Shown: positions 20,111 through 63,692, counted from the first letter of the stretch. The stretch: 64,000 bases of DNA from Chitinophagales bacterium (GCA_023957245.1 JAMLHJ010000004.1:78970-142969); one strand, 5' to 3'. A program made the numbers and translations. The notes: generated by a model not told the origin, from the letters alone.

Positions 20111-20134
20111 TTATAATAAACAAAAGATAATCAA

Positions 20135-35239: not shown

Positions 35240-35263
35240 AATGCTTTTTTTTAAAAGGACGTT

Positions 35264-35443: not shown

Positions 35444-35812
35444 AATACTATGCTAAAATAATTCAACAACTCAAAGGTATATATTTATATATCACCATCC
35501 AAATTTAAAAACGACTATTTTAAATTTTACTTATATTATAAATATGTCAGAAGGTCAACTATAAACCACTTTCTTTCAATATGTATGGAAGTCTATCCAC
35601 AGTTAAGGAGATGCATGTGGACAGTACCCAACGGTGGTTATAGGGACAAGCTTGATGCTATAAGGTTACAGACAATAGGAGTGGTTGCAAGCGTGTGGGA
35701 CAGCTACTATTAATGGAAGTAATATTTACATTTCTATTAAGTTATAAAAAGTGTCTCTAAATAATTCAAACAAATATATTATATCCGAACTTGTTAAATA
35801 AACTTTCTTATT

Positions 35813-36451
35813 CTACTTTAGTCTTAAAAGTATTTCTCTATCTCTAAATCCATTATTTTTTACAAATTTCTTAAATTGCTTTTTGCTTGGTGTGAATTCG
35901 TAAATCTGTGCTTTTTCAGTCGGTGAATCTGTAATTTCTCTTAAATGTTCAATATCAAGTTGTGTTGAGATAGAGCTCAATATTAATTTTTCTCTAGTCA
36001 ATTGAATTTTTTTTACTATCCAACTTGATTGTTTATATCGTGTACTCAAAAAATAATAGCCTTTAAACTCTCTAGCAATATTATCCGAGCTCATTAGAAA
36101 CAAAGTGTCAATTTTATGAACGTGTGTAATTAGGCTATCTCCATCTCGTGTGATTAAAGATTTTTCATTTGAAATTGGATTTATAATTGTATCCCCAGAG
36201 GGTTGAGATGCGCTATCTAGTTGATTGGAATGGGTTTCTGTGTCATAATCATAAATTCGCCTGATCATTTGATCACTTATTTCAAGAGTTGAATTATCAT
36301 CAAGACTTAAATATTGCCCTTGTAATCGCTTCGGAAATTCTGATAAATTGTCTGTTTCAGTGGGTTGTGGTTCGCTGAAAGTGACACTCGGAGTGCAAGC
36401 ATAAAAGCTTATCAAAAAAATAGGAACCAAAAGAGATTTCATTCGTTTCAT
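35813..36451 (-). CDS. hypothetical lipoprotein
   Basis: The track ORF starts at 36496; the internal Met16 (36451) gives MKRMKSLLVPIFLISFYAC, a signal peptide plus lipobox. No recognisable domain. Confidence 0.5.
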   Translation of the reverse strand: MKRMKSLLVPIFLISFYACTPSVTFSEPQPTETDNLSEFPKRLQGQYLSLDDNSTLEISDQMIRRIYDYDTETHSNQLDSASQPSGDTIINPISNEKSLITRDGDSLITHVHKIDTLFLMSSDNIAREFKGYYFLSTRYKQSSWIVKKIQLTREKLILSSISTQLDIEHLREITDSPTEKAQIYEFTPSKKQFKKFVKNNGFRDREILLRLK

Positions 36452-36528
36452 AGTGTGGTTTTTTTGAATGTTGTCTATATTGGCGTATAACGTCAATCAA
36501 TTGTTGATATTGAGGAGAGATTTTTTAT

Positions 36529-37086
36529 TTATCTTTTATTAACAACTTCTTCCAATATCATCTTACAAATACTTTGCGCATATTCTTGTTTCATATAAAA
36601 ATCATGTTGCTCCTCTTTGAAGATAATTGGGGCGATATGTTGCTGTTCAAACCATTTTTTCTCAGGTTGAAATATATCTTCTTTACCATAGAATAAATAG
36701 ATTTTAGCATTAGGTTTTAGTGTTTCATTCCTTAATCTTGTAGATGAAATGGCAAATAAACTAGGTGAGTTTTGATTCTTTAGCAAAGATTGCCAAGCGA
36801 TTGTTCCTCCAATGCTGAAAGCTAATATAGCATCAACTTTCAATGGTGCTTGTGATAATTTGTTGACTGCATTGAAAATTCCTACTTCAACAAAATACCG
36901 ATGAATATCTTTTTCGTCTTTAAATTCATTAGGGACTTTTGCCAATACTTGGCTATCGAGTTCAATGATATCAAATTTTTCCTTCAGTACTGAGGTGTAA
37001 TATTGCCACCAAGTTGAAGATTCTATTCCCCATAAATCTGAAATTATTAATAAACTAGGTTGGGGAATTTTATTGCTAGAAATCAT
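36529..37086 (-). CDS. small alpha/beta-hydrolase-fold protein (function unknown)
   Basis: 185 aa with a nucleophile-elbow-like AFSIGG and a short serine-hydrolase-like architecture. Weak call. Confidence 0.45.
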   Translation of the reverse strand: MISSNKIPQPSLLIISDLWGIESSTWWQYYTSVLKEKFDIIELDSQVLAKVPNEFKDEKDIHRYFVEVGIFNAVNKLSQAPLKVDAILAFSIGGTIAWQSLLKNQNSPSLFAISSTRLRNETLKPNAKIYLFYGKEDIFQPEKKWFEQQHIAPIIFKEEQHDFYMKQEYAQSICKMILEEVVNKR

Positions 37087-37205
37087 TGCAAAATGAAAAA
37101 TATCTTTAAAAATACTGAATTGCTGTCATTTGAAAGTCATTATAATCTTAAAAAGTTGACATTAGTTGATTGAGTTTTTAATTTTAAGTTATAAAATATT
37201 TGATA

Positions 37206-37631
37206 ATGACAAGTTCAAAAATAGTTAGAACTTATATTGTATTAATGAGTGCATTTTTCTTATTCACCACTTCTGTATTTGCCGAAGGAATAAATTTTGA
37301 AAATATTACTTTTAAAAAAGCATTGGAGAAGGCAAAAGCTGAGAATAAATTGGTGTTTGTAAATGTTTATGCAGTATGGTGTGGACCATGCAAATTGTTG
37401 AAAAAGACTACTTTTCAATCTGATAAAGTGGCTGCGGCTATTAATAATAGCTTTGTGAATTTGGATATTGATGCAGAAAAAGGAGAAGGTATTGAGTTTT
37501 CTAAAACTTATAACGTCAAAGCTCACCCCTTGATTTTGATTATCCGACCTGATGGGAAAGTGGAAAAAAGAATATTAGGTTATATGAAAGACAATCAACT
37601 TCTTTCAGAGCTAAAAGGACTTCTTAAATAA
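37206..37631 (+). CDS. secreted thioredoxin-family protein
   Basis: The track ORF starts at TTG 37200; the ATG at 37206 is preferred. It has a signal peptide and the WCGPC active site. Confidence 0.75.
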   Translation: MTSSKIVRTYIVLMSAFFLFTTSVFAEGINFENITFKKALEKAKAENKLVFVNVYAVWCGPCKLLKKTTFQSDKVAAAINNSFVNLDIDAEKGEGIEFSKTYNVKAHPLILIIRPDGKVEKRILGYMKDNQLLSELKGLLK

Positions 37632-37656
37632 TTGAGTTTCAATAAGTATTTGGTTG

Positions 37657-37685
37657 AGGTGTGCTTGGTTGAGCACACCTTTTTG
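37657..37685. terminator. intrinsic terminator between the convergent thioredoxin and terC genes
   Basis: AGGTGTGCT / AGCACACCT stem, followed by TTTT. Confidence 0.7.
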
Positions 37686-37692
37686 CTTTTCC

Positions 37693-38709
37693 TTACTGAA
37701 TTGCTTTATGTTTTTTATTGGAAATAATAGAAGCTGTAACTGAAATTAATAGGACAGAACCGATAAACATCAATGAGTGTGTTGAATCCATGTGATAAAA
37801 TGGCATAATCAACATTTTCACTCCTATGAATCCCAGAATAACAGCCAGACCATAGTGCAATTTGTTGAACAAATCCATAGAGTTTGCTAGTAAAAAGTAT
37901 AAAGTTCTAAGACCAAGAATAGCAAAGATATTTGAGGTATATAAGATAAAAGGATCGTCAGGAGCTATAGCAAAAATTGCTGGAATACTATCTACTGCAA
38001 AAACCAAATCTGTCAATTCTATTACAATTAATGCTGCGAATAATGGCGTTGCCATTTTTATTCCATTTTGAATAGTGAAAAATTTCCCTCCATTCATCTG
38101 ATTACTGACTTTGAAAAGTTTATATACTATACGTACTGCAATATTTTTGGACATATCTTTATTTTCCTCACCGTCATCATGGCTTCCCCAGGATTTAATA
38201 CCAGCAAAGATTAAGAATACACCGAAAACAGTCAATACAACATTGATTTGTCTTACTGCTCCCTCTGCATCCAATCCTAAGAATGGCGCATCAACGTAGG
38301 TGTGTTTGATAATTTCAACTCCAGCAAAAATGAATATGGCTCTAAAGACAATTGCTCCCAAAACACCCCAGAATAATATCCTATGTTGATGTTGTTTAGG
38401 TATTTTAAAAAACCTAAATACTAAAATGAAAACAAATAAATTATCTACTGAAAGTGCTTTTTCTATCCAATAAGCTGCTTGGAAACGTGAAAAATTATCT
38501 ATGGTTCCTGCAGGTTTATCTATTGCGAAATAGATAACTAAGCTAAATATCATAGCTAGACTTATCCATATTACAGACCATGTTAAAGCTTCTTTGTTGG
38601 TGATCTCATGGCTTTTTTTGTTGAGAATACCCAAGTCTAAAAGTAGCATGATGATAATGGTGATTGAGAATCCTATAAGAATTCCAGGGTGATTAAAAAG
38701 ATGATCCAT
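37693..38709 (-). CDS. TerC/Alx-family integral membrane protein
   Basis: 338 aa, multi-TM, with TerC-family motifs (EKALSVDNLFVF, ELTDLVFAVDSIPA). Confidence 0.85.
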   Translation of the reverse strand: MDHLFNHPGILIGFSITIIIMLLLDLGILNKKSHEITNKEALTWSVIWISLAMIFSLVIYFAIDKPAGTIDNFSRFQAAYWIEKALSVDNLFVFILVFRFFKIPKQHQHRILFWGVLGAIVFRAIFIFAGVEIIKHTYVDAPFLGLDAEGAVRQINVVLTVFGVFLIFAGIKSWGSHDDGEENKDMSKNIAVRIVYKLFKVSNQMNGGKFFTIQNGIKMATPLFAALIVIELTDLVFAVDSIPAIFAIAPDDPFILYTSNIFAILGLRTLYFLLANSMDLFNKLHYGLAVILGFIGVKMLIMPFYHMDSTHSLMFIGSVLLISVTASIISNKKHKAIQ

Positions 38710-38749
38710 ATAAATGTGTCTATTCTATTTTTTTATTGAGGATGTAAAT

Positions 38750-39961
38750 TTAATATTCGGTTGCCATTAATAAATTCAAGTCAGTGTGTTTAAGTTCAAA
38801 ATTATTGGCAATATAATCTTTTGATAAAGTCCCCTTATACATATAAACTCCATTTCTGAAATAGATATCTGAACGGATTTGTGGTTCAACTCCTCCTTCT
38901 TGACCTATTTTTCTAAATATAGGAGTCAAGATATTACTCATAGCATAAGATGCGGTTCTTGATACTGCTGAAGAAATGTTGGGTACACAATAATGGATAA
39001 TTCCATGCTTGATAAAAATAGGTTGATTGTGATTGGTTACTCTAGATGTTTCAAAACAACCACCTTGATCGATACAAGTGTCAATGATGACGGTGTTTTT
39101 CTTCATCTGCATGACCATTGATTCTGTAACAATTTTTGTTGCCTGACCACTAGAGTGATGTAGTGCGCCTATAGCTACATCTGCACGACTAAGATTTTTT
39201 TTAAGATTGAGAGGATCTAAAACAGATGTGTAAATATTGTTGCCCAAAAGATTTTTTGCCTGATTTAATAAATGGATATTATCATCAAATAATTGTACTT
39301 GCGCTCCTAATCCTATCGCAGATTTTGCAGCAGCAAGTCCTACATATCCTGCTCCTAGAATCAATACTTTGCATGGTGGTTGCCCTGCAATACCTCCAAG
39401 TAAAACTCCCTTACCATATTCGTTGCTAAGATATTTTCCTGCTAAGATGATAGAATAATTACCTGCAATGTCTCCAATCGAATCCAAATAAGGATAGTAG
39501 TCTTCAGTGCTTTTGATATATTCATAAGCAATTGCTGTAATTTTTAACTGCATCATGCTTTTTAATAGCATCTTATCCAAAGCTGGCAAAAGAATAGGCG
39601 AAAAGATAGTCTGCCCACTCTGAAAGTATTGAAGGTCTAAAGATGCAATGGGCGAGGATTTTAATATAATATTGGCTTGATATACTTCTTTGCTTGAATT
39701 TACAATTTGTGCTCCTGCTTGAATATAATCTTCATCTTCAAAATTAGACAATTCACCAGCACCTGCTTCAATTATGATACGGTGACCATGATTGGTCAGT
39801 GACGCAACTGAATTGGGAGTAAGTGGAATCCTTTTTTCTTGTAAATAAGTTTCTTTAGGAATTCCAATATATAGAGGTTTTTTAATAGGAAATATTTCTG
39901 CAAATGCCTCCTGAGGAGTAAGGGAATATTCTTTTTTAGTTTTCTCTAAAGTAGTTTCCAT
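38750..39961 (-). CDS. ald: alanine dehydrogenase family protein
   Basis: 403 aa with AlaDH/PNT N- and C-terminal domains and the NAD-binding VLILGAGYVGLAAA motif. Confidence 0.8.
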   Translation of the reverse strand: METTLEKTKKEYSLTPQEAFAEIFPIKKPLYIGIPKETYLQEKRIPLTPNSVASLTNHGHRIIIEAGAGELSNFEDEDYIQAGAQIVNSSKEVYQANIILKSSPIASLDLQYFQSGQTIFSPILLPALDKMLLKSMMQLKITAIAYEYIKSTEDYYPYLDSIGDIAGNYSIILAGKYLSNEYGKGVLLGGIAGQPPCKVLILGAGYVGLAAAKSAIGLGAQVQLFDDNIHLLNQAKNLLGNNIYTSVLDPLNLKKNLSRADVAIGALHHSSGQATKIVTESMVMQMKKNTVIIDTCIDQGGCFETSRVTNHNQPIFIKHGIIHYCVPNISSAVSRTASYAMSNILTPIFRKIGQEGGVEPQIRSDIYFRNGVYMYKGTLSKDYIANNFELKHTDLNLLMATEY

Positions 39962-39967
39962 ATAGGG

Positions 39968-40384
39968 TTAGTTCGTGTGAATTTCTAGTATTCTATTGTC
40001 AGCATGTGATGAAATATGAATATTTACAGCCTCATTCGGAATGAGATTTGAAATCTTTTCAGGCCATTCTATAAAAGTATATTCTCCGCTGTAAATCATT
40101 TCTTCAATTCCTGCATTGTACGCTTCTTCTTCATTATCAATACGATAAGCATCAATATGATAGATTTTTCCTTGAGGGTAAATGTATTGGTTGGCAATAG
40201 TATATGTCGGACTAGATACCAAATCTTGAGAGCCTAGTATTGAAACAATTTCTTTGATAAGTGTTGTCTTTCCAGCACCCAAATCTCCTGTAAAAGTCCA
40301 TACTTTGTTATTCCCCATAATAGAGAGTATATCAGAAGCTACGGTGTTCAATTCTATTAATTGGTATTGATATTTCTTTTGCAT
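39968..40384 (-). CDS. tsaE: tRNA t6A37 biosynthesis ATPase TsaE
   Basis: 138 aa with the P-loop GDLGAGKTT and the HIDAYR motif. Confidence 0.9.
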   Translation of the reverse strand: MQKKYQYQLIELNTVASDILSIMGNNKVWTFTGDLGAGKTTLIKEIVSILGSQDLVSSPTYTIANQYIYPQGKIYHIDAYRIDNEEEAYNAGIEEMIYSGEYTFIEWPEKISNLIPNEAVNIHISSHADNRILEIHTN

Positions 40385-40403
40385 CAGCGCACAAATATAC
40401 AGA

Positions 40404-41249
40404 CTATTTCACATTGAAGTATGAGTAGTATGGAGAGGATTCCTTTAGAATATTTGCCAATGATTTGACTGGAATCTTTATAGAAGTAGCTCCAAATGCA
40501 TAAGGAGCAATTTCATAATTATTGTAATAAAATTCAATAGTGTCTTTTGTGAAATTGATATTTTGATTGGTATAAAAATCACCATTCTCTTTAAACGAAT
40601 CTTCAAACATATAGCTCATCCAAAGACTATCTTCTAAGAGTGTTATTTTCTGATTTTCTAATGTTTTAAATCTGATAGAATTAAGTTGGCTCATCTTAGT
40701 GCTGTCAATGATATCATACATTTTTATTGCGTGTCCGTTATTCAAATCGAAAGATTTATAAATAGTATATGAATTGGGATGCGCACCACCCTTGTAAGAC
40801 GATTCGCTGAATGACAAGGTAAGGATAGTTCCTACTTTCCCTGCAATCGCAATATTTTTATCTACTAACCATGTTGAACTTCTTGGAAACTCTGCATAAG
40901 CTTCATCATATTCATGGAACATCTTATTGGCTTGTTCTTGAATGTTGGGAAATTCTTTTACAGGTGTTTCAGAATCCAAAATAAAGCCAGCAATAGCAGC
41001 ATTGATATTTTCTAAAGCTTCTTTGGGTAATGATTCTGTTATTTCAGGATATTGCAATTTAAAATGAGATTGTAAAACAGGGTCTTTTTGATATCTATCA
41101 TCAGCAATGTCAAAATTTTTAATCTTTGATTGGATATTATTTGCAGCTATTTGTTGTTTTGAAAGCTTATCATTATTGCATGATAAAAATAGCGTTAACA
41201 TCATTGCAACTATAATTATTCTTGAGGTGTGCAGTTTCATAAATGACAT
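40404..41249 (-). CDS. DUF3298/DUF4163-type lipoprotein (RsiV/PdaC-N-like)
   Basis: 281 aa with lipobox LFLSC and the characteristic YKGGAHPNSY motif. Confidence 0.7.
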   Translation of the reverse strand: MSFMKLHTSRIIIVAMMLTLFLSCNNDKLSKQQIAANNIQSKIKNFDIADDRYQKDPVLQSHFKLQYPEITESLPKEALENINAAIAGFILDSETPVKEFPNIQEQANKMFHEYDEAYAEFPRSSTWLVDKNIAIAGKVGTILTLSFSESSYKGGAHPNSYTIYKSFDLNNGHAIKMYDIIDSTKMSQLNSIRFKTLENQKITLLEDSLWMSYMFEDSFKENGDFYTNQNINFTKDTIEFYYNNYEIAPYAFGATSIKIPVKSLANILKESSPYYSYFNVK

Positions 41250-41327
41250 TTCTCTGCATTATAAACATAAAAATTGAAGAATTAGTTTCGTGTTAAGCTA
41301 AATTAACAGATTTGAAAATTCATATAA

Positions 41328-41864
41328 TTAGATAGGATTAGATTTGCTTTTCTGTGCTTTTCTCATTTTGCGTTCTATGTCTTTTTGTTCTAATTCTGTT
41401 CCGATATATGGTACTCTTGTTCCCATGACATAATCCCAAAGTGGAAAAGTAACACACCAGTTCTTTTCTTGGTCTCTTGCCATGTGATGATCATAATGCC
41501 AAGGTAGATATTTGTATCCCCATTCTGGATCTTCATGAGATTTTCTATGTACTCTGTAATAATTTGCCATAGAAGTCCAAAGTCCTAAAGTAAATCCCGG
41601 AAGTATTGGAAATAAAGGCGAAACAGTTACTGCACTTACTGCCAAAGAAAAGGCTTCTTGGCTATGTGGATTCCATAATTCCCATAATGTCTTTTGATAA
41701 TCTGGATCTTGAAATTCCTTTTCATAAACAGTTTTATGATGGATAGCATAATGAAACCTGAAAAAACTTTCTTTCCTTTGTGCATCTTCATGCAAAAGAT
41801 GTTTATGAATATACCATTCAGCAGCATTGGCTGTAATCAGACCTGTAACAAAACCTAAAACCAT
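41328..41864 (-). CDS. fatty-acid hydroxylase / sterol desaturase superfamily membrane protein
   Basis: 178 aa with histidine boxes HKHLLH, HYAIHHK, HRKSHED and HYDHHM. Confidence 0.6.
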   Translation of the reverse strand: MVLGFVTGLITANAAEWYIHKHLLHEDAQRKESFFRFHYAIHHKTVYEKEFQDPDYQKTLWELWNPHSQEAFSLAVSAVTVSPLFPILPGFTLGLWTSMANYYRVHRKSHEDPEWGYKYLPWHYDHHMARDQEKNWCVTFPLWDYVMGTRVPYIGTELEQKDIERKMRKAQKSKSNPI

Positions 41865-41958
41865 GATTGAAAAAATCTTATTGACAATTTAAGCAACTAA
41901 TTTTATTTTTTAATGTTCTATATCAATGATTTTCACTTTTTATTTTTATATAGTTTAG

Positions 41959-43131
41959 ATGGAACAAAATACTTCTAATCAGAAGATTGTTATTGAGTGT
42001 ACTAGTCTGATTTCAGAATTGAATATAGAAGTGTGGAATCGTATAGTAGGTCAAAGATTTTATGCTCATAGCTCTCATTTGAAGATAATTGAAGAATTGA
42101 ATCAAGCAGAAATGAAATTTTTCTACTTATTAATTCAATTAGAAGGAGAATATTGTGCTGCAATTTATTTTCAGCAGATTCCATTTAAAGTCAAAAATGG
42201 TCTGAACAATTTTAAGGAAAAGAATAAAAATCAATGGAGTTGGGTGACTCCCTTTTTAAGTATTGCTAATAATATTAAACTCCCCTTACTGAAAAGTGGT
42301 AATATCTTTTTTACAGAGGATAATGGTGTTTATTTTATTGATACAATTTCTGAAGAAAAAAGAATTTCTGTGTTGGAACAAGTATCAGATTATATCTATT
42401 CTCAATGTAAAAATGCTCATTCTATTTCATTAATGTGGAGCAATCTGATTGAGAATCATGGGAAGATATTGCATGAGGATAAAGGATTTCAATCTCTTGG
42501 TACAGAACCCAATATGATTTTTGAATTGCAACCTGAATGGCAAATATTTGAAGAATATTTATCTGATTTTTCTTCAAAATACCGCCAAAGAGCGAAAAGA
42601 GTATTTGTTCAGAGTCAAGATTTGGTGATAAAAGAATTGAAACTTGAGGAAGTAGATGCTGTCGAACATCAATTGGTGAATTTGTATAGAAATGTTGCTC
42701 AACATGCTTCTTTTAATTTGGCTTTTATTTCCAAGGGATATTTTTTCCGTATGAAACAACTGTATGGAAATGATTTTGTAGTGAAAGTGTATTTATTAGA
42801 TTATCAAATAGTGGGATTTACATCTTCAATTTATCATAATAAACAGCATTATGTCCATTTTATTGGGTTGGATTATAAAGTCAATATTCAAGTGCCAGTT
42901 TATCATAGAATGTTGTTTGAATATGTACGAGAAAGTATTAATTTAAGACATACAAAAATCTATTTAGGAAGGACTGCTACTGAAATAAAAACGACAATAG
43001 GCGCCGTTCCGATTGAGATGAAGAACTATTTAAAGATTTCTAAAGTATGGTATTTATCATGGTTACCTGCTATGTTGGGTTCGTTTGGTGCCAAGCCATA
43101 TATTGTGAGACGACCATTTAAATCTACATAG
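41959..43131 (+). CDS. hypothetical protein, possibly FemAB-like/GNAT-fold acyltransferase
   Basis: 390 aa. The C-terminal half (SKYRQRAKR ... GFTSSIYHNKQHYVHFIGLDY) resembles BioF2/FemAB-like acetyltransferase families. Assigned from memory only. Confidence 0.4.
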   Translation: MEQNTSNQKIVIECTSLISELNIEVWNRIVGQRFYAHSSHLKIIEELNQAEMKFFYLLIQLEGEYCAAIYFQQIPFKVKNGLNNFKEKNKNQWSWVTPFLSIANNIKLPLLKSGNIFFTEDNGVYFIDTISEEKRISVLEQVSDYIYSQCKNAHSISLMWSNLIENHGKILHEDKGFQSLGTEPNMIFELQPEWQIFEEYLSDFSSKYRQRAKRVFVQSQDLVIKELKLEEVDAVEHQLVNLYRNVAQHASFNLAFISKGYFFRMKQLYGNDFVVKVYLLDYQIVGFTSSIYHNKQHYVHFIGLDYKVNIQVPVYHRMLFEYVRESINLRHTKIYLGRTATEIKTTIGAVPIEMKNYLKISKVWYLSWLPAMLGSFGAKPYIVRRPFKST

Positions 43132-43185
43132 TAAGATATTCTGATGGGTAATTAGAGTGAATATTTTTATCTTCATCGATTCTAT

Positions 43186-45624
43186 ATGTTGTATTGCGAA
43201 GTCATCTTGCCCTTGCCTGTAAAAGGTACATTTACTTATAGTATTCCTAAGGAATTAGAAGCTCTGGTTCAGATAGGGTGCCGTGTGGAGGTGCAGTTTG
43301 GGCGAAGAAAACTCTATACTGCTTTGGTGAAATCTATTCATCATGAAAAGCCAATAGCGTATCCTGCTAAAGAAATTATTGATGTTATTGATTTTTCTCC
43401 AATTGTTTATTCTACTCAATTAGATTTTTGGCAATGGATGTCTAGTTATTATTGTTGCTATGAAGGGGAAGTGATGTCAGTAGCTTTACCGACATATTTC
43501 AGGCAAGATAGTGAAACATTGTATGTAAAAAATCCTGATTGCGCATTGGATATTATCGAATTGCCTGATAATGAATATTTAGTGGCAAGTGCTCTGGAAC
43601 GTCAAGAAGCTATCACTTTAGCTGATATTCAAATAATTCTTCAGAAAAAGGGTGTTCAAAAAACAATTAAAAGTCTGATTGAGAAAAGAGTTTTGTTGTT
43701 ACAAGAGTATTTAGAAGAAAAATACAAACCTAAGTTATTGGCTTATGTTCGTCTTCATCCAGATTATTTTCATGATAAAACTGCTTTGCAATCACTTTTT
43801 AAAAATTTGGAAAGAAAGCCTAAGCAGACGGATTTGTTGTTGGCATACTTAAATATATCTTCTGATGGTGATTGGGTAGCAAGAAATGAACTTTTAAAAT
43901 CGGCGAATATTTCTGGTTCTGTTTTAAGAACGATGATTAGCCAAGAAATTTTCCTAATAGAAGATAGAGAGGTTTCTCGTGTGGAAGAAGAATGTATTAT
44001 ATCTCCCAATTCGACTTTAAATGAGCAACAAAATATTGCTTTTCAATCTATCAATAAATACTGGGAGGATATGAATGTCGTGTTACTCAGAGGAGTTACG
44101 GCATCTGGGAAAACTCATGTTTATGTTGAGTTAATTCGCAATTTTTTAGCAGAAGGGAAACAGATTTTATACTTAGTTCCAGAGATAACATTGACAACAC
44201 AACTAGTCAAAAGATTAGAAAAAATGTTGGGCAAAGTTGGGGTGTATCATTCTCGATTTAATCCTGCGGAAAGAGTTGAAACTTGGTTGAAAGTATTACA
44301 ACAAGAATATAATATCATTGTAGGCGCTCGGTCTTCAATATTTCTTCCATTTTCAAATTTAGGTTTGGTGATTATAGACGAAGAGCATGATGGTTCCTAT
44401 AAGCAGAGTGAGTCAGCACCTAGATATCAGGCAAGAGATAGCATAATTTGGTTGGCTCATCAGACTGGAGCTAAAATATTGTTAGGAAGTGCAACACCTT
44501 CATTGGAGTCTTGGGCAAATGCTAAGAGTGGAAAATTTGGCTTGGTGAATTTGGATAGTAGATTTGGAGAGATGAGCCTTCCTCAATTGAATTTTGTCAA
44601 TATGTCAAAAGCTCGTAAAGAAAAACGTGTGACGGGAATGTTGAGTGATGGATTACAAGCTCAAATGAATAAAGTGCTTTCTCAAAACAAACAGACTATA
44701 ATTTTCCAAAATCGAAGAGGGTATTCTCCTTATATTGCCTGTAAAGAATGTGCATGGACACCCTATTGTCAGCACTGTGATGTAGCATTGACTTATCATA
44801 AGTATTCTGAGCATCTAAAGTGTCATTATTGTGGCTATACGATGATGATGCCCAAAAGTTGCCCTTCTTGTCAATCAACACTTCTGGAACTGAAAGGTAC
44901 TGGAACTGAAAGGGTAGAAGATGATTTACAAGCAATATTCCCATCAGCACGAATATTGCGATTGGACTATGATACTGCCAAATCTAAACATGCTCATGAG
45001 AAAATTTTAGAGCAATTTGAACAAGGTGAAGCAGATATATTAGTAGGTACTCAGATGGTTACCAAAGGATTGGATTTTAAAAATGTCCAATTAGTTGGGG
45101 TATTAAATGCTGATTCATTATTGTATTATCCAGATTTTAGAGCAACAGAACGAGCATATCAATTATTATCTCAAGTGAGTGGCAGATCAGGACGGTCAGA
45201 TGAGCAGGGCAAAGTTGTGATACAGATTAGCGACCCTAATCATCCTATAGTCGAGCATGTCAGCAATATGGATATTGAAGCTTTTTATAAAAAGGAATTG
45301 GGTGAGCGTATGAGGTTCAACTATCCTCCATTTGTCAGATTGATACAGATTGCTGTAAAGGATAGCTCTGAAAGAGTAGCACAAGAAGCTGCAGAATTTA
45401 TTGCTATTCAACTAAGAAATCGTATCAAAGGTGAAGTGCTTGGACCTACAATTCCTTATTTATCGAGAATTCAAGGGAAATTTATAAGAGAGATTTTGAT
45501 TAAAATGGAAAGAAATGTTGATGTAATCTCAGCTACTAAATCTTCAATAGTAGAAGCTCGTCAATTGCTATTTCAATACGATAAGTTTAAAAAGACACGT
45601 ATTGCTATTGATGTAGATCCTTGA
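43186..45624 (+). CDS. priA: primosomal replication-restart helicase PriA
   Basis: 812 aa with Walker A GVTASGKT, DEEH box, Cys-rich zinc region (CKECAWTPYCQHCD...CHYCG...CPSC) and helicase C domain. Confidence 0.95.
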   Translation: MLYCEVILPLPVKGTFTYSIPKELEALVQIGCRVEVQFGRRKLYTALVKSIHHEKPIAYPAKEIIDVIDFSPIVYSTQLDFWQWMSSYYCCYEGEVMSVALPTYFRQDSETLYVKNPDCALDIIELPDNEYLVASALERQEAITLADIQIILQKKGVQKTIKSLIEKRVLLLQEYLEEKYKPKLLAYVRLHPDYFHDKTALQSLFKNLERKPKQTDLLLAYLNISSDGDWVARNELLKSANISGSVLRTMISQEIFLIEDREVSRVEEECIISPNSTLNEQQNIAFQSINKYWEDMNVVLLRGVTASGKTHVYVELIRNFLAEGKQILYLVPEITLTTQLVKRLEKMLGKVGVYHSRFNPAERVETWLKVLQQEYNIIVGARSSIFLPFSNLGLVIIDEEHDGSYKQSESAPRYQARDSIIWLAHQTGAKILLGSATPSLESWANAKSGKFGLVNLDSRFGEMSLPQLNFVNMSKARKEKRVTGMLSDGLQAQMNKVLSQNKQTIIFQNRRGYSPYIACKECAWTPYCQHCDVALTYHKYSEHLKCHYCGYTMMMPKSCPSCQSTLLELKGTGTERVEDDLQAIFPSARILRLDYDTAKSKHAHEKILEQFEQGEADILVGTQMVTKGLDFKNVQLVGVLNADSLLYYPDFRATERAYQLLSQVSGRSGRSDEQGKVVIQISDPNHPIVEHVSNMDIEAFYKKELGERMRFNYPPFVRLIQIAVKDSSERVAQEAAEFIAIQLRNRIKGEVLGPTIPYLSRIQGKFIREILIKMERNVDVISATKSSIVEARQLLFQYDKFKKTRIAIDVDP

Positions 45625-45653
45625 TAATGTATTTTTTAGTGAGATGTAATTCA

Positions 45654-46019
45654 AGTCGAGAGCCAAGAATCAAGAATCAAGAGCCAAGACAATGAAGTTA
45701 CGAAGTACGAGTTACGAATGAAAATGCTGTTGAAACTAACCACAAAGAATGTTAAGTTTTACGCTAAGAACACTAAGTTCAATGAAGTAAAGTGGAGGTT
45801 TGAAGATTTGAAGATGCTGGTGGTTGAGCCCTGTCGAAACCAACCGCAAGAATGATAAAATTTAACCGCAAAGCACGCTAAGTTTTACGCTAAGAATAAG
45901 GTAACGAGTAGATGTAGATTACTTCGTTCCTCGCAAGGATTCTTCTAGCTCATCATACTGAGTTTGTTTCAGCATTAAAAGAACAATAATAATTGACCCT
46001 GAATCGAGTTCATGGTGAC
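45654..46019 (+). repeat. left copy of a long non-coding direct repeat (one 127-bp unit)
   Basis: Collinear by eye with 49071-49557, with only about a dozen point differences. No ORF of 60 aa or more. G+C is higher than in the flanks. Confidence 0.85.
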
Positions 46020-46388
46020 TACCACTGTTTTTTGTTTAATTTATTATCAAAATACTTTCACTTTAATTATACTTGTATTCATAACATATTGATTATTTGC
46101 AAATAAATTTCATTTGAATTGCCTTTATTCATTTTTCTTTAGTATATTACAATTAGTATAATATGATGACTATTATTAGGATGCCGTATGAAAATGATAA
46201 TGCGATATTATACATTGCCTCTTGTTTGTTCAAACAATAATTTTGTTAAAGTTTGTAGTAAAATTTCTGTCTTAGAAGGTATATTTTCAAAAACTCTCCT
46301 GAAAATTCAAACTATAAAACCCTATAATATATTTTTAAAATAAAACAGGATATTTTTATCCGATTTATTCAAAAGTAAAAAAAGCGAT

Positions 46389-49058
46389 ATGAAACGATAT
46401 ATTTTTACACTAATACTTGCGATAGCTGGTGTTCAGACACTAGGAGCTCAAGGCGTAGCTATTAATACGAGTGGACTAGATCCAGATTCAAGTGCGGTGC
46501 TTGATTTGACATCACCCACTGTTGGAGGAGGGATATTAGTGCCACGATTGCTACTTGGTAATGTAGGTATTACCTTCAACGATGGACCAGCACCACATCT
46601 GATGGTTGCCAATCTCAATTCGACTTATGGAAGTGGCAGTAAATTCAATAGTGGCATAGGTTTTTATCGCAATGCTGGAACAAAGGTTTTACCTAAATGG
46701 GTGCGTCTATTAGAAGCCACAGATTCAAGTTCATTTTGGAGTATTTATGGCAATGCAGGTACCATCGACGGCACTCATTTCATAGGTACGACAGATAATG
46801 TACCACTTAATTTTAGAATTAATAACCAAAAAGCAGGAAGAATAGGAGTAACTGGAGATGGTAGTGTGTTTCTAGGTTATCAGGCAGGTAATAATGATGA
46901 TAAATCTAATAATTATAATGTAGCAATAGGTTATCAATCTTTATATAGTAACACAGTTGCAAATCATAACATAGCTACTGGTTATCAAGCTTTATACTCT
47001 AATATTTCAGGACCTAGTAATATAGCTATTGGATCTTATGCTTTATTTTCCAATATCTCAGGACGTCACAATATTGCAAATGGATTTCAAGCTTTATACT
47101 TTAATACTATAGGAATTGGTAATATTGCTAATGGAACTGGTGCTTTATTTGAGAATGATTCGGGTTCTTACAATATTGCAAATGGTTATTTTGCTTTAGC
47201 TGGGAATATTAGTGGGTCTAATAATATTGCAATAGGTAATCGTGCATTAACAAATTGCAAAGTCCAGTCTGGCCTTATTGCTATTGGTGATAGCACCTTG
47301 TATAGTACTTATAGTGGTGGTCTATATAGTATTGCTATTGGTAGTAAAGCATTGTTTTCTAATACAACAGGAACATCAAATTATGCTATTGGCTATCAAG
47401 CTTTATATTCTAATACAAGAGGCTTCCGCAATATAGCTATTGGTTATCGGGCTTTGTATTCTGATATTGATGGAAGTTCGTCTCTTGCTATTGGTGATAG
47501 GGCTTTAAGTGCTAACCTAAATGGAATGTATAATATGGCTATAGGAAGTAGGGCATTAACATTGAATACAAATGGTGGTTATAACAATGCTATTGGTTAT
47601 CAAACTTTATTTTCAAACATTTCGGGCGCTGATAATTATGCTAGCGGTTTTTCTGCTTTGCATTCTAATAGAACAGGCTCCTATAACCTAGCAATTGGAA
47701 ATTTTGCATTGTACTCAAATGATATAGCAATTAATAATCTTGCTATTGGTTTTAATGCTTTATATTCAAGCAATTCAGTAGCTAACTTTGCTATTGGTAA
47801 TTATTCTTTATATCAAAATAGAACAGGCAGTAGAAATATGGCTATTGGCTATCAATCTTTAAATATGCACAAAGCGGGAGATGCCAATGTGGCAATTGGT
47901 TACCAAGCTTTAAGTAAAGACACTATAAGTAATAATAATATGGCAATTGGTTATCAAGCCTTATATAGTCATAAAGTGGGAGATAATAATATGGCAATTG
48001 GTTTTCAAGCTTTATATAATGATACATTAGGAATTCAAAATAATGCAATCGGATATCAAGCTCTTTACAATAATACTACAGGATATTTTAATACAGCTAC
48101 AAGCTATCAATCTTTATATTCCAATACATCAGGAATTTCCAATACGGCAACAGGCTATCAATCTTTATATCGCAATACCACTGGAAATTATAATACGGCA
48201 AATGGAAATTACTCATTGTATTTCAATACCACAGGAAATTATAATACGGCAAATGGAATATATTCTTTATATAGAAATTCTACAGGAAGTTTCAATACAG
48301 CAAGTGGAACGAATTCTTTGTATTCCAATATCTCAGGAAATCATAATACGGCAACTGGAATAAATTCTTTATATTCCAATATCTCTGGACTTCAAAATAC
48401 GGCAACTGGAAATTACTCTTTATATTCCAATACCGTAGGAGATTTAAATACGGCAACTGGCTTTTATTCTTTATATTCCAATACCACAGGAAGATACAAT
48501 ACAGCTTATGGCACTTTTGCCCTTTCTGCCTTAACAAGTGGAAACAATAATATCGGCATCGGTTATAATGCACAAGTACCTAATGCTAATGGCGATAATC
48601 AAATAAGAATGGGTGATTTTAATATTACTTATGCTGGTATTCAAGTAGCATGGACAGTAACGAGCGATCGTCGCTGGAAAGAAAATATTATTTCCACCCC
48701 TTTGGGTTTAGCTTTTGTCAATTCATTGAAACCTGTTGCTTATACTCGAAAAAATGATGAAAGCCATCATATAGAATATGGATTTATTGCTCAAGAAGTG
48801 GAAGAAGCACTCCTGAAAGCAGGTGTTGATCCGGCGGGTATCATTACAAAGGATGATGATGGAATGTATAGTTTGAGATATAATGACCTTTTAGCACCGA
48901 TGGTAAAAGCTATCCAAGAACTCAGCAAAGAGAATGAACAATTGAAAGCGGATAATGAAAGTCTGAAAGCTGAAATAGAGATACAAAAAGTAGATACCGA
49001 AACACGTCTTTCTAAGCTGGAAGACTTGTTAAAGGCAGGGCTGTATGTAGAGAAGTAA
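46389..49058 (+). CDS. secreted repeat fibre / adhesin-like protein with C-terminal S74-type intramolecular chaperone (tail-fibre-like) domain
   Basis: 889 aa with signal peptide (LGAQG). It has about 33 copies of the 17-aa repeat N-x-A-[IT]-G-x-x-[AS]-L-[YF]-x-N-[TI]-x-G-x-x. The C-terminus (SDRRWKENI...YGFIAQEVEEAL...YSLRYNDLLAPMVKAIQEL plus a coiled coil) matches the endosialidase-chaperone/Peptidase_S74 pattern. Confidence 0.8.
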   Translation: MKRYIFTLILAIAGVQTLGAQGVAINTSGLDPDSSAVLDLTSPTVGGGILVPRLLLGNVGITFNDGPAPHLMVANLNSTYGSGSKFNSGIGFYRNAGTKVLPKWVRLLEATDSSSFWSIYGNAGTIDGTHFIGTTDNVPLNFRINNQKAGRIGVTGDGSVFLGYQAGNNDDKSNNYNVAIGYQSLYSNTVANHNIATGYQALYSNISGPSNIAIGSYALFSNISGRHNIANGFQALYFNTIGIGNIANGTGALFENDSGSYNIANGYFALAGNISGSNNIAIGNRALTNCKVQSGLIAIGDSTLYSTYSGGLYSIAIGSKALFSNTTGTSNYAIGYQALYSNTRGFRNIAIGYRALYSDIDGSSSLAIGDRALSANLNGMYNMAIGSRALTLNTNGGYNNAIGYQTLFSNISGADNYASGFSALHSNRTGSYNLAIGNFALYSNDIAINNLAIGFNALYSSNSVANFAIGNYSLYQNRTGSRNMAIGYQSLNMHKAGDANVAIGYQALSKDTISNNNMAIGYQALYSHKVGDNNMAIGFQALYNDTLGIQNNAIGYQALYNNTTGYFNTATSYQSLYSNTSGISNTATGYQSLYRNTTGNYNTANGNYSLYFNTTGNYNTANGIYSLYRNSTGSFNTASGTNSLYSNISGNHNTATGINSLYSNISGLQNTATGNYSLYSNTVGDLNTATGFYSLYSNTTGRYNTAYGTFALSALTSGNNNIGIGYNAQVPNANGDNQIRMGDFNITYAGIQVAWTVTSDRRWKENIISTPLGLAFVNSLKPVAYTRKNDESHHIEYGFIAQEVEEALLKAGVDPAGIITKDDDGMYSLRYNDLLAPMVKAIQELSKENEQLKADNESLKAEIEIQKVDTETRLSKLEDLLKAGLYVEK
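46911..48575 (+). repeat. 51-bp (17-codon) periodic array inside the fibre gene
   Basis: There are about 33 consecutive units. The last ~9 (48080-48500) are nearly identical at the DNA level, which generates spurious out-of-frame ORFs on both strands. Confidence 0.8.
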
Positions 49059-49070
49059 TGATTTGGGTAG

Positions 49071-49557
49071 AGTCAGGAGCCAAGAATCAAGAGCCAAGAC
49101 AATGAAGTTACGAAGTACGAGTTACGAATGAAAATGCTGTTGAAACTAACCACAAAGAATGTTAAGTTTTACGCTAAGAACACTAAGTTCAATGAAGTAA
49201 AGTGGAGGTTTGAAGATTTGAAGATGTTGGTGGTTGAGCCCTATCAAAACCAACCGCAAAGAATGATAAAATTTAACCGCAAAGCACGCTAAGTTTTACG
49301 CTAAGAACACTAAGTTCAATGAAGTAATGTGGAGGTTTGAAGATTTGAAGGTGCTGGTGGTTGAGCCCTATCAAAACCAACCGCAAAGAATGATAAAATT
49401 TAACCGCAAAGGACGCTAAGTTTTACGCTAAGAATAAGGTAACGAGTAGATGTAGATTACTTCGTTCCACGCAAGGATTCTCCTAGCTCATCATACTGAG
49501 TTTATTTCAGTATTAAAAGAACGATAATAATTGACCCTGAATCGAGTTCATGGTGAC
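49071..49557 (+). repeat. right copy of the long non-coding direct repeat (two 127-bp units)
   Basis: It has the same sequence and orientation as 45654-46019 and begins 12 nt after the fibre-gene stop. Confidence 0.85.
49163..49416 (+). repeat. tandem duplication of a 127-bp unit within the right repeat
   Basis: The word TAAGTTTTACGCTAAGAA starts at 49163, 49290 and 49417 (period 127). The left copy has a single unit. Confidence 0.85.
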
Positions 49558-49641
49558 CCTTTGTGTGCTATTTTACAATACTCCCAATTAGAGTACATCA
49601 AGGAGAGGAAATGGTTTCTATTATATTTTTAAGCAAATACT

Positions 49642-49649
49642 TAGCTTTG
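49642..49649 (+). promoter_or_regulatory. -7 promoter box (TAGCTTTG) for dcp
   Basis: TAnnTTTG match 15 nt upstream of ATG 49664 and 27 nt upstream of ATG 49676. Confidence 0.45.
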
Positions 49650-49663
49650 TACTTTGATAATTA

Positions 49664-51802
49664 ATGAGATTTAAAATGAAAAAATATATTCTTTTAGCTC
49701 CTTTAACTTTTTTAGCATTAGCTTGTCATAGTTCAAAGGAAGTCATCAGTACAAGTAAAAATGAGATAAAAATGAGTTTAGATAATAACCCTTTATTGGA
49801 GGAAAGTGTATTGCCCTACTTTGCTCCAGATTTTAGAAAATTTAAAAATGAGCATTTTGAACCTGCAATCATTGAAGGAATATTGCAGAAAGAGCAAGCA
49901 GTGAATAAAATAGCAACTCAATCTGCTGAACCTACATTTGAAAATACTATTGTCGCTTTAGAAAAAAGTGGTGTTACCTTGACAAGAGTAATGCAGATAT
50001 TTGGTGCCTTGGAATCTGCTAATACCAATGATACATTGCAAGAAATAGATGAAGCGATGGCTCCAAAATTAGCAGAGTTAAGCGATAAAATGTATCTGAA
50101 TGTTGATTTGTTTAAAAGAATTAAAACTCTTTATGACAAAAGAAATCAATTGGGTCTAGATGCAGAATCTTTAAAATTGCTAGAAGTCTATTATCAAGAT
50201 TTTGAAATTTCAGGAGCTAATCTTTCCGATGCTGATAAAGAGATTCTAAAAGATTATAATGCTAGATTAGCTACTTTAAGTTCTAAGTTTAGTAAGGTTT
50301 TATTGGCAGCTAATAATGCGTCTGCAGTGAAATTTGAAAATGTAGAAGAATTAGATGGTCTGTCAGAGAAGGTATTGAATTCCTTATATGATAAAGATAG
50401 TAATGCATGGATTATACCATTGCAAAATACTACTCAACAACCTTTATTGGCTGCTATAAAAAATAGAGCAAGTAGAGAAAAATTATTTAAAGCATCATGG
50501 AATAGAACTGATGGTGGGGCTAATGATACAAAAGGATTGATTCAAGAAATGGTAGAATTGAGAGCTAAAAAAGCCCAACTTTTAGGTTTTGATAATTTTG
50601 CTGCATGGAGTTTACAGACTTCTATGGCTAAAAATCCTGAAAATGTCAATCATTTTTTTGCTGATTTGATTCCAGCTACTATGGCAAAAGCTCAGAAAGA
50701 ATCAGACGAAATACAACAAATGATTTATTCTACAGGAGAGAAATTTTCAGTCGAACCTTGGGATTGGGATTACTATTCAGAGATGGTTAGAAAGATGAAG
50801 TACGATTTGGATGAAGAACAAATCAAACCTTATTTTGAAATGTACAACGTATTGGAAAAAGGAGTTTTCTATGCAGCTACTCAATTATATGGTATTACAT
50901 TTAAAGAGCGTACAGATATTCCAGTCTATCATAGTGATGTAAGAGTCTATGAACTTTTTGAAGAAAATGGTTCTCCTTTGGGTTTATTTTATGCAGATTT
51001 TTTTGCACGTCCTTCAAAAAGAGGTGGAGCGTGGATGTCTAATTTTGTAGATCAATCTAAATTATTTGAACAAAAGCCTGTTATTTATAATGTATGCAAT
51101 TATCCTAAACCAGCGCCAGGAAGTCCTGCATTATTGACTTATGATGATGTGGAAACTATGTTTCATGAGTTTGGACATGCATTGCATGGATTTTTTGCCA
51201 ATCAACAATACCCTTCACTTTCAGGTACTGCAGTAGCACGAGATTTTGTAGAATTTCCTTCCCAAATCAATGAAAACTGGGCATTGTATCCACAAGTATT
51301 GAAAAACTATGCACTTCATTATGAGTCTGGCGAACAGATTCCTCAAAGTCTGATAGATAAAATAAAAAAATCTTCTACCTTCAATCAAGGCTATAGTTTA
51401 GGTGAAGTATTAGCAGCTGCCAATTTAGATATGCAATGGCATACAGTTCCTGCAGATAGTGTCATTAAAGATGTAGATGCTTTTGAAAAAGCGGCACTTC
51501 ATAGAACTTTATTGGACAAAGTACATGCAGTGCCTACAAGATATCGTTCTACTTATTTTGCACACATTTTCGGTGGAGGTTATTCAGCAGGATATTATGC
51601 TTATCTATGGACAGAAATGTTGGATCATGATGCATTTAGCTATATGGTGCAAAAAGGTGGATTGAATCGTGCTAATGGTCAAAGATTGAGAGAGATGATT
51701 CTTTCAAAAGGAAATACAGAAGATCTTAAACAGATGTATTTAGATTGGAGAGGAGCTGAGCCTCAAATTGAACCAATGCTCAAGGCAAGAGGCTTGGAGT
51801 AG
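49664..51802 (+). CDS. dcp: M3-family peptidyl-dipeptidase (Dcp-like), lipoprotein
   Basis: 712 aa with the zinc motif HEFGHALH and an N-terminal signal with lipobox LALAC. An alternative start is ATG 49676 (MKKYILL). Confidence 0.85.
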   Translation: MRFKMKKYILLAPLTFLALACHSSKEVISTSKNEIKMSLDNNPLLEESVLPYFAPDFRKFKNEHFEPAIIEGILQKEQAVNKIATQSAEPTFENTIVALEKSGVTLTRVMQIFGALESANTNDTLQEIDEAMAPKLAELSDKMYLNVDLFKRIKTLYDKRNQLGLDAESLKLLEVYYQDFEISGANLSDADKEILKDYNARLATLSSKFSKVLLAANNASAVKFENVEELDGLSEKVLNSLYDKDSNAWIIPLQNTTQQPLLAAIKNRASREKLFKASWNRTDGGANDTKGLIQEMVELRAKKAQLLGFDNFAAWSLQTSMAKNPENVNHFFADLIPATMAKAQKESDEIQQMIYSTGEKFSVEPWDWDYYSEMVRKMKYDLDEEQIKPYFEMYNVLEKGVFYAATQLYGITFKERTDIPVYHSDVRVYELFEENGSPLGLFYADFFARPSKRGGAWMSNFVDQSKLFEQKPVIYNVCNYPKPAPGSPALLTYDDVETMFHEFGHALHGFFANQQYPSLSGTAVARDFVEFPSQINENWALYPQVLKNYALHYESGEQIPQSLIDKIKKSSTFNQGYSLGEVLAAANLDMQWHTVPADSVIKDVDAFEKAALHRTLLDKVHAVPTRYRSTYFAHIFGGGYSAGYYAYLWTEMLDHDAFSYMVQKGGLNRANGQRLREMILSKGNTEDLKQMYLDWRGAEPQIEPMLKARGLE

Positions 51803-51933
51803 AATGATATCACATTTCTTTATTTGATTGTTGTTTTAATATTAAGGACAACTCAGTGTAGATTTGATATTTTCATAAGCATTATTTTGGGTTTAAACAA
51901 TGTTAATACATAGATGGAATGAGCTATAAATTT

Positions 51934-63674: not shown

Positions 63675-63692
63675 TACAAATATAATGGTTAA

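Follow-up and report, generated by a model that had tools for sequence, protein, structure and literature searches.

A surface-fibre gene of an uncultured Chitinophagales bacterium is carried between priA and a dcp-type peptidase gene as a single-gene island, bounded on both sides by near-identical non-coding direct repeats, here called R. The whole stretch of DNA analysed, 64 kb in length, is referred to as the window, and the genes, repeats and spacers described lie on its plus strand. We regard R as a discrete, lineage-restricted, non-coding mosaic repeat and the R-cargo-R arrangement as a product of homologous recombination through R, a reading to which we give about an even chance of being correct. 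The block is best read as a lineage-specific, potentially recombination-prone accessory-gene cassette of a familiar kind and not as a new type of mobile element.

The left copy of R (45654-46019, 366 nt) and the right copy (49071-49557, 487 nt) are the same non-coding sequence in the same orientation, as an earlier note on this DNA had proposed and as a repeat search and BLAST confirmed. The repeat search delineated two families of direct repeats, pairing 45659-45849 with 49069-49259 (96%) and 45848-46019 with 49386-49557 (97%), and BLAST agreed. Global alignment gave 97.2% identity, with 10 substitutions in 359 aligned columns and three indels: an extra CAAGAAT heptamer on the left, an additional 127-nt unit on the right and a single A. 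The estimate made by eye in the earlier note, about a dozen substitutions or 1-nt indels besides an extra 7-nt unit on the left and an extra 127-bp unit on the right, was borne out. A 360-nt match at 97% places the pairing far beyond chance, and both copies share the same sharp 5' and 3' ends. The layout described in that note also held: the left copy begins about 30 nt past the priA stop codon (45622-45624), the right copy 10-12 nt past that of the fibre gene (49056-49058; 12 nt had been claimed), the repeat period is 3417 nt (49071 minus 45654), neither copy holds an open reading frame of 60 aa or more, with stops in all six frames, and both copies are richer in G+C (38%) than the adjoining spacers (22% at 46020-46388, 29% at 49558-49663). 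The G+C content of the window is 33%. We rejected R as a coding sequence or pseudogene because of these stops and because a 45/54-aa open frame differs by non-synonymous changes and a frameshift and has no database match.

The genes had been named correctly as well. The conserved left flank, priA (43186-45624), encodes primosomal protein N' of 812 aa with the Pfam domains PriA_3primeBD, DEAD, Zn_ribbon_PriA and PriA_C, and its product matches MCO5230535.1, encoded by a Chitinophagales MAG, at 100% identity. The conserved right flank (49676-51802) encodes a Dcp-like M3 metallopeptidase of 708 aa (Peptidase_M3, E = 6e-137), the exact sequence of MCO5230537.1. Against the Dcp equivalog of NCBIfam it reaches 917 bits, slightly below the 944-bit cut-off. 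The fibre gene (46389-49058) is the only gene between them. It encodes 889 aa comprising a signal-like N-terminus, an adhesin-like region of about 30 repeats of 17 aa (51 nt) and a C-terminal Peptidase_S74 chaperone domain (PF13884, E = 2.5e-13). Its homologues are at most 54% identical, and the source annotation is 'tail fiber domain-containing protein'. A foreign composition of the gene was considered and rejected, as its codon usage matches the window (43rd of 47 genes when ranked by distance from the window average).

Upstream of the fibre gene, the AT-rich region at 46020-46388 lies outside R, and a scan with the motif TAnnTTTG located there a candidate Bacteroidota-type -7 box, TAATTTTG, at 46238-46245, a predicted promoter based on the consensus match. 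The ancestral upstream spacer of dcp (49558-49675) follows the right copy and holds the -7 box TAGCTTTG at 49642-49649. Long direct repeats did not flank fibre homologues at any of four loci (two in genomes, two in viral contigs), and such repeats were discarded as a general trait of this gene family.

Comparison with the closest retrievable relative, GCA_026931855.1, a different species with a PriA identity of 81%, revealed the same locus without cargo. There, priA is followed by the M3 peptidase gene across an 82-nt spacer, with neither R nor a fibre gene, and TACCTTTG occupies the place matching the -7 box of dcp. The flanking genes share 77-78% DNA identity, and the alignment ends at window position 45625 and resumes at 49627, corresponding to position 12477 of the relative's locus (L012), so that window 45626-49626 stands in place of 36 nt of the relative's priA-dcp spacer. 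The priA-dcp synteny is preserved, and the fibre gene does form a discrete unit with a housekeeping gene on either side. The earlier note had suggested comparing related strains for an empty site with one repeat copy or for different cargo; an empty site was found, but the single R was absent from it. An R x R deletion would leave one R behind, so this site did not arise in that way, nor is it a target containing R. It also argues against the alternative offered in that note, namely that R was a target sequence duplicated on insertion, although the relative is diverged (77-78%) and an R-bearing immediate ancestor is possible.

With the priA-dcp spacer taken as ancestral, the 4.0-kb block of R, spacer, fibre gene and R reads as an insertion in this comparison of two genomes, with which a deletion in the relative would also be compatible. 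In more distant relatives (PriA identity 66-67%) priA has other neighbours and the priA-dcp synteny is lost, and hence these genomes provide no outgroup polarity. No strain-level variants were found in the protein clusters checked, all of which were single-member, and look-ups by exact sequence, made for PriA and for the fibre protein, were of no help. Since the two copies of R are 97% identical whereas the flanks are 77-78% identical to the relative, the duplication of R, or its last homogenisation, is much younger than the species split.

R is built of short tandem sub-repeats of 7, 8 and 127 nt and also contains a 34-nt module in two or three direct copies. Tandem Repeats Finder reported 2.3 copies of the 127-nt period at 49147-49434 in the right copy, and about 1.3 copies could be read from the coordinates of the left one. 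Both 127-nt units of the right copy have three states in common that differ from the left copy, so the unit number varies within one copy in a VNTR-like manner. The 34-nt module, AACCGCAAAG-CACGCTAAGTTTTACGCTAAGAA, is located at 45863-45896, with a variant at 45737-45770 and right-hand copies near 49147, 49274 and 49401. It is the sole part of R that was found to recur elsewhere: at three loci of other Bacteroidota MAGs, it constitutes one arm (24 nt at most, 96% complementary) of the inverted repeat in palindromic intergenic elements. The longest exact block between the two copies of R spans 146 nt (45671-45816, identical to 49081-49226). A clean run of this length has P ~0.013 under a uniform scatter of the 13 differences, indicating that the differences are unevenly distributed, and the block could represent a gene-conversion or crossover tract. 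Copy-specific states, by which recombinant copies of R could be told apart, occur at 45833 (G/A), 45836 (G/A), 45874 (C/G), 45931 (T/A), 45944 (T/C), 45966 (G/A), 45973 (C/T) and 45985 (A/G), as well as in the unit number.

The identical, sharp ends of R on both sides make homologous recombination through R the most economical origin of the arrangement. We infer two equivalent routes. A circular or tandem intermediate consisting of one R and the fibre unit might have recombined with a resident R by a Campbell-type single crossover, or unequal crossing-over might have taken place within an R-spaced array. Subsequently, the two copies would have diverged by about 3% and undergone at least one patch of homogenisation, represented by the 146-nt block. 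None of these exchanges would involve an element-encoded enzyme. The fibre unit has two long direct repeats on its flanks, with 146 nt as the longest perfect identity, and efficient RecA-dependent exchange in E. coli needs roughly 25-90 nt of identity, which the block exceeds. RecA-dependent exchange between the two copies could amplify the fibre unit or remove it, in which case a solo R would remain. Such loss or amplification through R is plausible; together with swapping, which the earlier note also suggested, it is drawn from general knowledge of homologous recombination, and any present-day instability is, like the route itself, deduced from the arrangement. The divergence of about 3% between the copies implies that the arrangement has lasted for some time without collapse. 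Two points weigh against the Campbell-type route. It calls for R at a second locus or in the donor DNA, and our seed-limited search found no third copy; moreover, a resident R before the insertion is assumed, and the sole empty site has none.

The first alternative treats R as a dispersed mosaic of intergenic DNA resembling the neisserial NIMEs. Copies of R would have accrued independently on both sides of a surface-protein gene while the fibre gene came separately, for instance as minimal mobile elements do, through homologous exchange within priA and dcp, so that R would not be a mover at all. R is indeed modular and carries pieces of a repeat from other Bacteroidota, both copies sit 10-30 nt past a stop codon and are oriented as their upstream gene, the cargo encodes a surface protein without accompanying mobility genes, and there is a precedent in Neisseria, where pilC1 lies between NIME arrays (PMC3898611). 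Against it, three events (two insertions of R and one of the gene) would be needed instead of one or two, the copies end at the same points and have 97% identity, and no other copy or fragment of R emerged from the 64 kb or from any collection scanned. In the window, BLAST returned only matches of 12-21 nt besides the two copies. An 18-mer occurring five times in R gave 11 single matches, roughly the number expected by chance, in 185,579 representative genomes (one per species, the source genome not among them), and a 20-mer gave 10 matches of just 20-33 nt in JGI metagenomes. Two scans of IMG/VR and BLASTN searches of plasmids and phages yielded no copy of R, and the longest open frame of R, used as a peptide to retrieve spurious ORFs called on other copies, produced no candidate. 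On these data R is not the ubiquitous intergenic element that the earlier note had weighed against its own proposal. As the large collections were searched by exact 18-23-nt seeds only and the source MAG through its 64-kb window, the absence of a third copy is a weak negative. Overall, we consider a dispersed mosaic unlikely, with perhaps one chance in several.

R might instead be a cis-acting part of each upstream gene, such as a 3'-UTR, terminator, insulator or regulatory region, that was duplicated as functionally required after priA and the fibre gene. Its orientation along both upstream genes and its start 10-30 nt after their stop codons would fit such a role, as would a purine-rich sense strand (58%) and the perfect conservation of 146 nt in the 5' part. 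However, the relative's priA has no such element, and the copies differ in the number of 127-nt units. The fold stability of the two copies did not differ significantly from shuffled sequence (z +0.55 and +0.11), nor did that of five short segments, taken from the 3' end and the 5' junction of each copy and from an internal hairpin of the left one (z -1.3 to +0.9). No terminator-like site was found in or beside R and no Bacteroidota -7 box within it. Rfam at gathering thresholds detected only the tRNA in the whole window, and at a relaxed threshold only matches to eukaryotic families (E >= 3.6) in 45550-46420, which covers the left copy and the spacer. R as a structured RNA or terminator was accordingly rejected, and a cis-acting role in any form appears improbable.

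An assembly product was also contemplated, the true state being priA-R-dcp accompanied by R, spacer and fibre gene, either on a circle of their own or in a tandem array that was collapsed. The source is a MAG, the exact 146-nt block exceeds common de Bruijn k-mers, and 127, the length of the R unit, is a commonly used maximum k-mer. However, the copies differ at 10 positions and by three indels, and each of the four R junctions is unique. Because the left copy already shows the 127-nt period and the units are no more than 95% similar to one another, the period is not a k-mer overlap artefact, and the native codon usage of the fibre gene speaks against chimerism with an unrelated genome. Even the alternative resolution would still place R beside both priA-dcp and the fibre gene and would amount to this very system in its excised or amplified state. 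We thus grant a misassembly only a small probability.

A bolder extension of recombination through R is that R serves as the handle of a Chitinophagales cassette system, either enzyme-free or served in trans, in which R-bearing fibre units would circularise and re-enter R-marked intergenic sites, thereby shuffling or amplifying adhesin-like genes. The vehicle would then be a non-coding 'long terminal direct repeat', undescribed so far and distinct from MITEs, integrons and islands. We rate both the system and such a vehicle as very unlikely. Least probable of all is that R is an attC- or att-like site of a site-specific cassette system with its recombinase encoded elsewhere in the genome: the sharp, identical ends and a cargo of one complete transcription unit would suit it, but R lacks palindromic attC-like structure and inverted repeats at its ends, known att sites are unlike R, which measures 366-487 nt and varies in its number of internal units, the four homologue loci have no comparable flanks, and no integrase, transposase or recombinase occurs within about 10 kb, where every gene either matches a housekeeping Pfam family or has its syntenic equivalent in the relative.

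If exchange through R does operate, it would be a simple means for an environmental Bacteroidota lineage to acquire, discard or amplify a surface-fibre gene with no enzyme dedicated to mobility, such a gene being a likely target of selection by phages, grazers or attachment, and would parallel the variation of surface genes beside intergenic repeat arrays in Neisseria. At present, the locus is a single-MAG example of a lineage-specific accessory gene between orphan repeats, well documented and unsurprising to a specialist. The R-bounded unit is a useful marker for read-level tests of population heterogeneity.

Several known systems resemble this arrangement in part. In the amplifiable units of DNA (AUDs) of Streptomyces and in enterobacterial duplication-amplification, long direct repeats are substrates of RecA-dependent deletion and tandem amplification. 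The fibre unit is likewise bounded by two long direct repeats. In those systems the role of the repeat usually falls to a coding sequence, an IS element or an rrn operon, whereas R is an orphan non-coding repeat through which the unit might be amplified or deleted. MITE-flanked composites, such as integron mobilisation units, carry cargo between two short, non-autonomous, non-coding elements, and MITEs have terminal inverted repeats, target-site duplications and many copies. The cargo here also lies between two non-coding copies, but the searches described above found no further copies, an inverted-repeat search detected only internal pairs of 8-13 nt in either copy and no terminal ones, and inspection by eye of the junctions (...GTAATTCA-R-TACCACTG... 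and ...ATTTGGGT-R-CCTTTGTG...) revealed no duplicated bases. R was rejected as a MITE or composite transposon on the last two grounds. An integron-type cassette, with an imperfectly palindromic attC of about 57-141 nt at its 3' end and with intI and attI nearby, was dismissed because R is non-palindromic, is 366-487 nt long and has no integrase within about 10 kb. So was an integrase-borne island, which would carry a tyrosine or serine recombinase and short att repeats, often at a tRNA 3' end, since the island contains the fibre gene and no recombinase, and the sole tRNA of the window (34455-34527) is 11 kb away.

The neisserial repeats, which are proposed to promote recombination, offer another parallel (PMC3898611). 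NIMEs consist of 20-bp dRS3 repeats, almost 700 per genome and also a target of phage integrase, together with RS elements; in N. meningitidis Z2491, the interval from carA to NMA0611 contains pilC1 with NIME arrays on either side, and it is depicted differently for another strain (PMC3898611). R shares with them modular non-coding blocks of a few hundred nucleotides on both sides of a surface-protein gene between housekeeping genes. The surface association rests on the signal-like N-terminus, adhesin-like repeats and S74 domain of the fibre protein, and the modularity on internal modules and tandem units, one module being common to three other MAG loci, with no further R locus in the window. 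In contrast to NIMEs, R is known from only two copies, is not bounded by dRS3-like inverted repeats and does not resemble NIMEs in sequence; its flanking pair is one element in the same register and not two distinct mosaics.

Minimal mobile elements (Saunders & Snyder 2002), in the outline given by PMC3898611, are defined by alternative cassettes among strains that are exchanged through the homology of their flanking genes. The fibre locus resembles that outline as a whole-gene cassette between two conserved genes, without mobility genes and with an occupied and an empty site: an 82-nt spacer in one genome faces a 4-kb insert in the other, the two belonging to different species (PriA 81%). It departs from the same outline in that the R-bounded cassette brings its own flanking direct repeats, which minimal mobile elements do not need.

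A repeat search of the window, BLAST and global alignment all supported the earlier note's claim of two direct, non-coding copies of the repeat R, at 45654-46019 (366 nt) and 49071-49557 (487 nt), flanking the fibre gene (46389-49058, plus strand). As that note had also described, the copies begin about 30 nt past the priA stop (left) and 10-12 nt past the fibre stop (right), the repeat period is 3417 nt, neither copy holds an ORF of 60 aa or more, and R is richer in G+C (38%) than the adjoining spacers (22% and 29%). The repeat search paired 45659-45849 with 49069-49259 at 96% and 45848-46019 with 49386-49557 at 97%. Globally aligned, the copies differ by 10 substitutions in 359 columns (97.2% identity) and by three indels, CAAGAAT being extra in the left R and a 127-nt unit and one A in the right R. 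In structure R is a mosaic of small repeats: its 5' end is made of heptamers, an 8-mer occurs as a pair, and there is the 127-nt unit, whose period Tandem Repeats Finder counted as 2.3 copies in the right R. About 1.3 periods are present in the left R too, as shown by a 34-nt module, AACCGCAAAG(C/G)ACGCTAAGTTTTACGCTAAGAA, which occurs as two or three direct copies in R and returns after 126-127 nt.

The locus comes from a Chitinophagales MAG. The fibre gene encodes a protein of 889 aa that begins with a signal-like sequence, continues with some thirty repeats of 17 aa and carries a Peptidase_S74 domain at its C-terminus. It is preceded by priA (43186-45624; protein MCO5230535.1, all domains present) and followed by dcp, an M3 peptidase gene (49676-51802; protein MCO5230537.1) scoring just below the Dcp equivalog cut-off. 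The fibre protein matched no solved structure and no NCBIfam model; its homologues, named 'tail fiber domain-containing protein' or 'trimeric autotransporter adhesin' by their sources, reach at most 54% identity. In a collection of 15 billion proteins it is missing, the best match being 42% identical; both neighbours are in it, and their accession numbers enclose exactly one other. The codon usage of the fibre gene is among the most typical in the window, which argues against both a compositionally foreign import and a chimeric join with an unrelated organism. Inside the gene, 46880-48620 holds about 30 in-frame 51-nt repeats (pairwise 60-77% identical), which are substrates for fibre length variation independent of the flanking R copies.

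The closest relative in the protein collection was GCA_026931855.1 (PriA 81% identical), which a Logan contig matches. Its gene order is conserved: the aromatic amino-acid genes, then priA, then the M3 peptidase gene, whose start lies 82 nt past the end of priA. DNA alignment with its contig L012 gave two blocks (window 36557-45625 with L012 3291-12440, and 49627-51796 with 12477-14642), and window 45626-49626 therefore replaces 36 nt. To the right of the insert, a candidate Bacteroidota-type -7 box before dcp, identified by motif match, is kept in both (TAGCTTTG in the window, TACCTTTG in the relative). Neither R nor the fibre gene occurs in the 22 kb retrieved from GCA_026931855.1. Thus, a site without the cassette, which the earlier note had proposed to look for, exists in this relative, without the single repeat copy expected there, and the note's alternative suggestion that R is a target sequence duplicated on insertion is disfavoured, as the empty site lacks R and none of the four R junctions shows a target duplication. 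The collections searched held no strain-level relative, and insertion here versus deletion in the relative is not settled by relatives at 66-67% PriA identity because other genes follow priA there.

Further differences from the closest relative surround the locus. Directly 3' of tRNA-Arg(CCT) (34455-34527), about 2 kb (34539-36556) stand where L012 has 45 nt; this stretch contains two minus-strand ORFs, 34844-35239 (131 aa) and 35813-36451 (212 aa), neither matching Pfam or NCBIfam, and has no integrase or flanking direct repeat. Conversely, L012 has between the M3 peptidase and the MFS transporter a 5.8-kb block (14643-20417, against window 51797-51893) without counterpart in the window; it encodes an ABC ATPase, a membrane-fusion-like protein, an FtsX permease and two further proteins of 304 and 447 aa. 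Several gene-sized differences in both directions therefore lie around the locus. Elsewhere in the window, three paralogous genes for a predicted metal-dependent hydrolase (PF10118) stand in tandem at 13780-16627, with products of 289, 301 and 289 aa and 77-80% DNA identity between the outer two, and 63692-63801 carries about five copies of a 22-nt tandem repeat resembling ATTTGCAAAATACATAAAGAAT, just upstream of a minus-strand AAA_14/DUF4143 ATPase gene (62502-63668).

The two copies of R retain traces of their history. Their 13 differences are unevenly spread: 45671-45816 and 49081-49226 are identical over 146 nt, most of the differences being located 3' of this block (P ~0.013 under uniform scatter). 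The pattern points to a tract of conversion or crossing-over, or alternatively to local constraint. The two 127-nt units of the right R share three states against the left R and are distinguished from one another by three or four positions; the change in unit number therefore took place inside a single copy, roughly when the left and right R separated. Since the R copies diverge by about 3% and the flanking genes by 22-23% from the relative, the duplication of R, or its last homogenisation, is much younger than the species split, but not brand new. The identical sharp 5' and 3' ends of both copies indicate that R was a discrete unit when duplicated.

Among routes that need no enzyme encoded by the element, homologous recombination through R is the simplest, and we give it about an even chance as the origin of the R-cargo-R arrangement. 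A circular or tandem intermediate with one R and the fibre unit would cross over with a resident R, or unequal exchange would occur in an R-spaced array. The relative's empty site, being without R, argues against simple excision between R copies as the origin of that site and against R as a pre-existing target there. Recombination through R would require another copy of R, present or past; none was seen in the window or the scanned collections. BLAST of the right R against the whole window found only the two R places, all other matches being 12-21 nt, and representative genomes, JGI metagenomes, IMG/VR, plasmids and phages yielded no third copy. With the large collections scanned by exact seeds and its own genome searched over the 64-kb window, R as a whole is an orphan, and a ubiquitous intergenic element, which the earlier note had named as counting against its cassette reading, was not borne out.

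Parts of R have counterparts. An 18-mer of the module occurs only 11 times across 185,579 species (one genome each), about the chance number, and three of these loci, on the Bacteroidota MAG contigs L003, L005 and L008, extend to 30-43 nt. In all three the module forms an arm of an inverted repeat (in L005 24 nt long, 96% complementary and bounding about 156 nt); R therefore includes fragments of a family of palindromic intergenic repeats from the phylum. It is conceivable, though unlikely, that a dispersed mosaic repeat accumulated independently beside a surface gene, by analogy with the neisserial NIME arrays that flank pilC1 (PMC3898611). In the Bacteroidota MAG JPMR_metabat.90, the palindromic module shared with R sits inside direct repeats of roughly 100 nt, GATGAAACGAGCATGTAT...GCGAGTTCCATCCG, with four copies over two contigs (L008 4545-4880, between divergent genes, and L003 3880-4200, minus strand as read). 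This bracketed module has no Rfam match and may be an undescribed small RNA or regulatory repeat.

We consider it improbable that R is a cis-acting 3' element. In its favour, both copies follow a stop codon; against it, no terminator-like site and no Bacteroidota -7 box was found inside R, and whole R folded no better than shuffled sequence on either strand. The same was true of five short segments, which covered the 3' end and the 5' junction of each copy and a hairpin inside the left R. Rfam matched no family to R at gathering thresholds over the whole window, nor to the left R and its spacer at relaxed thresholds, and R as a known RNA was rejected on the defining features tested. Coding was likewise rejected: stop codons interrupt all six frames, the longest ATG ORFs (45 aa left, 54 aa right) differ by non-synonymous changes and a frameshift, and the longest open frame had zero matches among 5.8 billion proteins. 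In the relative, by eye, the priA-dcp spacer (L012 12455-12485) has a 7-bp hairpin, TTGAAAG-gaatt-CTTTCAA, then GTTTT, which looks like a priA terminator; the window has none equally clear after priA, within R or after the fibre gene.

There is also a slim chance that the R-fibre-R arrangement is an assembly product. Resolved the other way via the 146-nt block, the sequence would be priA-R-dcp and, separately, the unit as a circle or array; this is itself the excised or amplified state of the same R-cassette system. A site-specific cassette system served in trans is very improbable: R lacks inverted repeats at its termini, no gene within about 10 kb of the cassette encodes an integrase or transposase, and all neighbouring genes either received a housekeeping Pfam assignment or correspond to a syntenic gene of the relative. 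Composite MITEs, integron cassettes and integrase-borne islands were each rejected on the defining features tested.

Loss or amplification of the cassette via R, as the earlier note predicted, would be expected on general grounds, since 146 nt of perfect identity are ample for RecA-dependent recombination. By analogy, the R-fibre-R arrangement would function like the NIME-flanked surface genes and the minimal mobile elements of Neisseria, and like amplifiable units bounded by direct repeats. The sequence of R itself is new; the kind of arrangement is already known.
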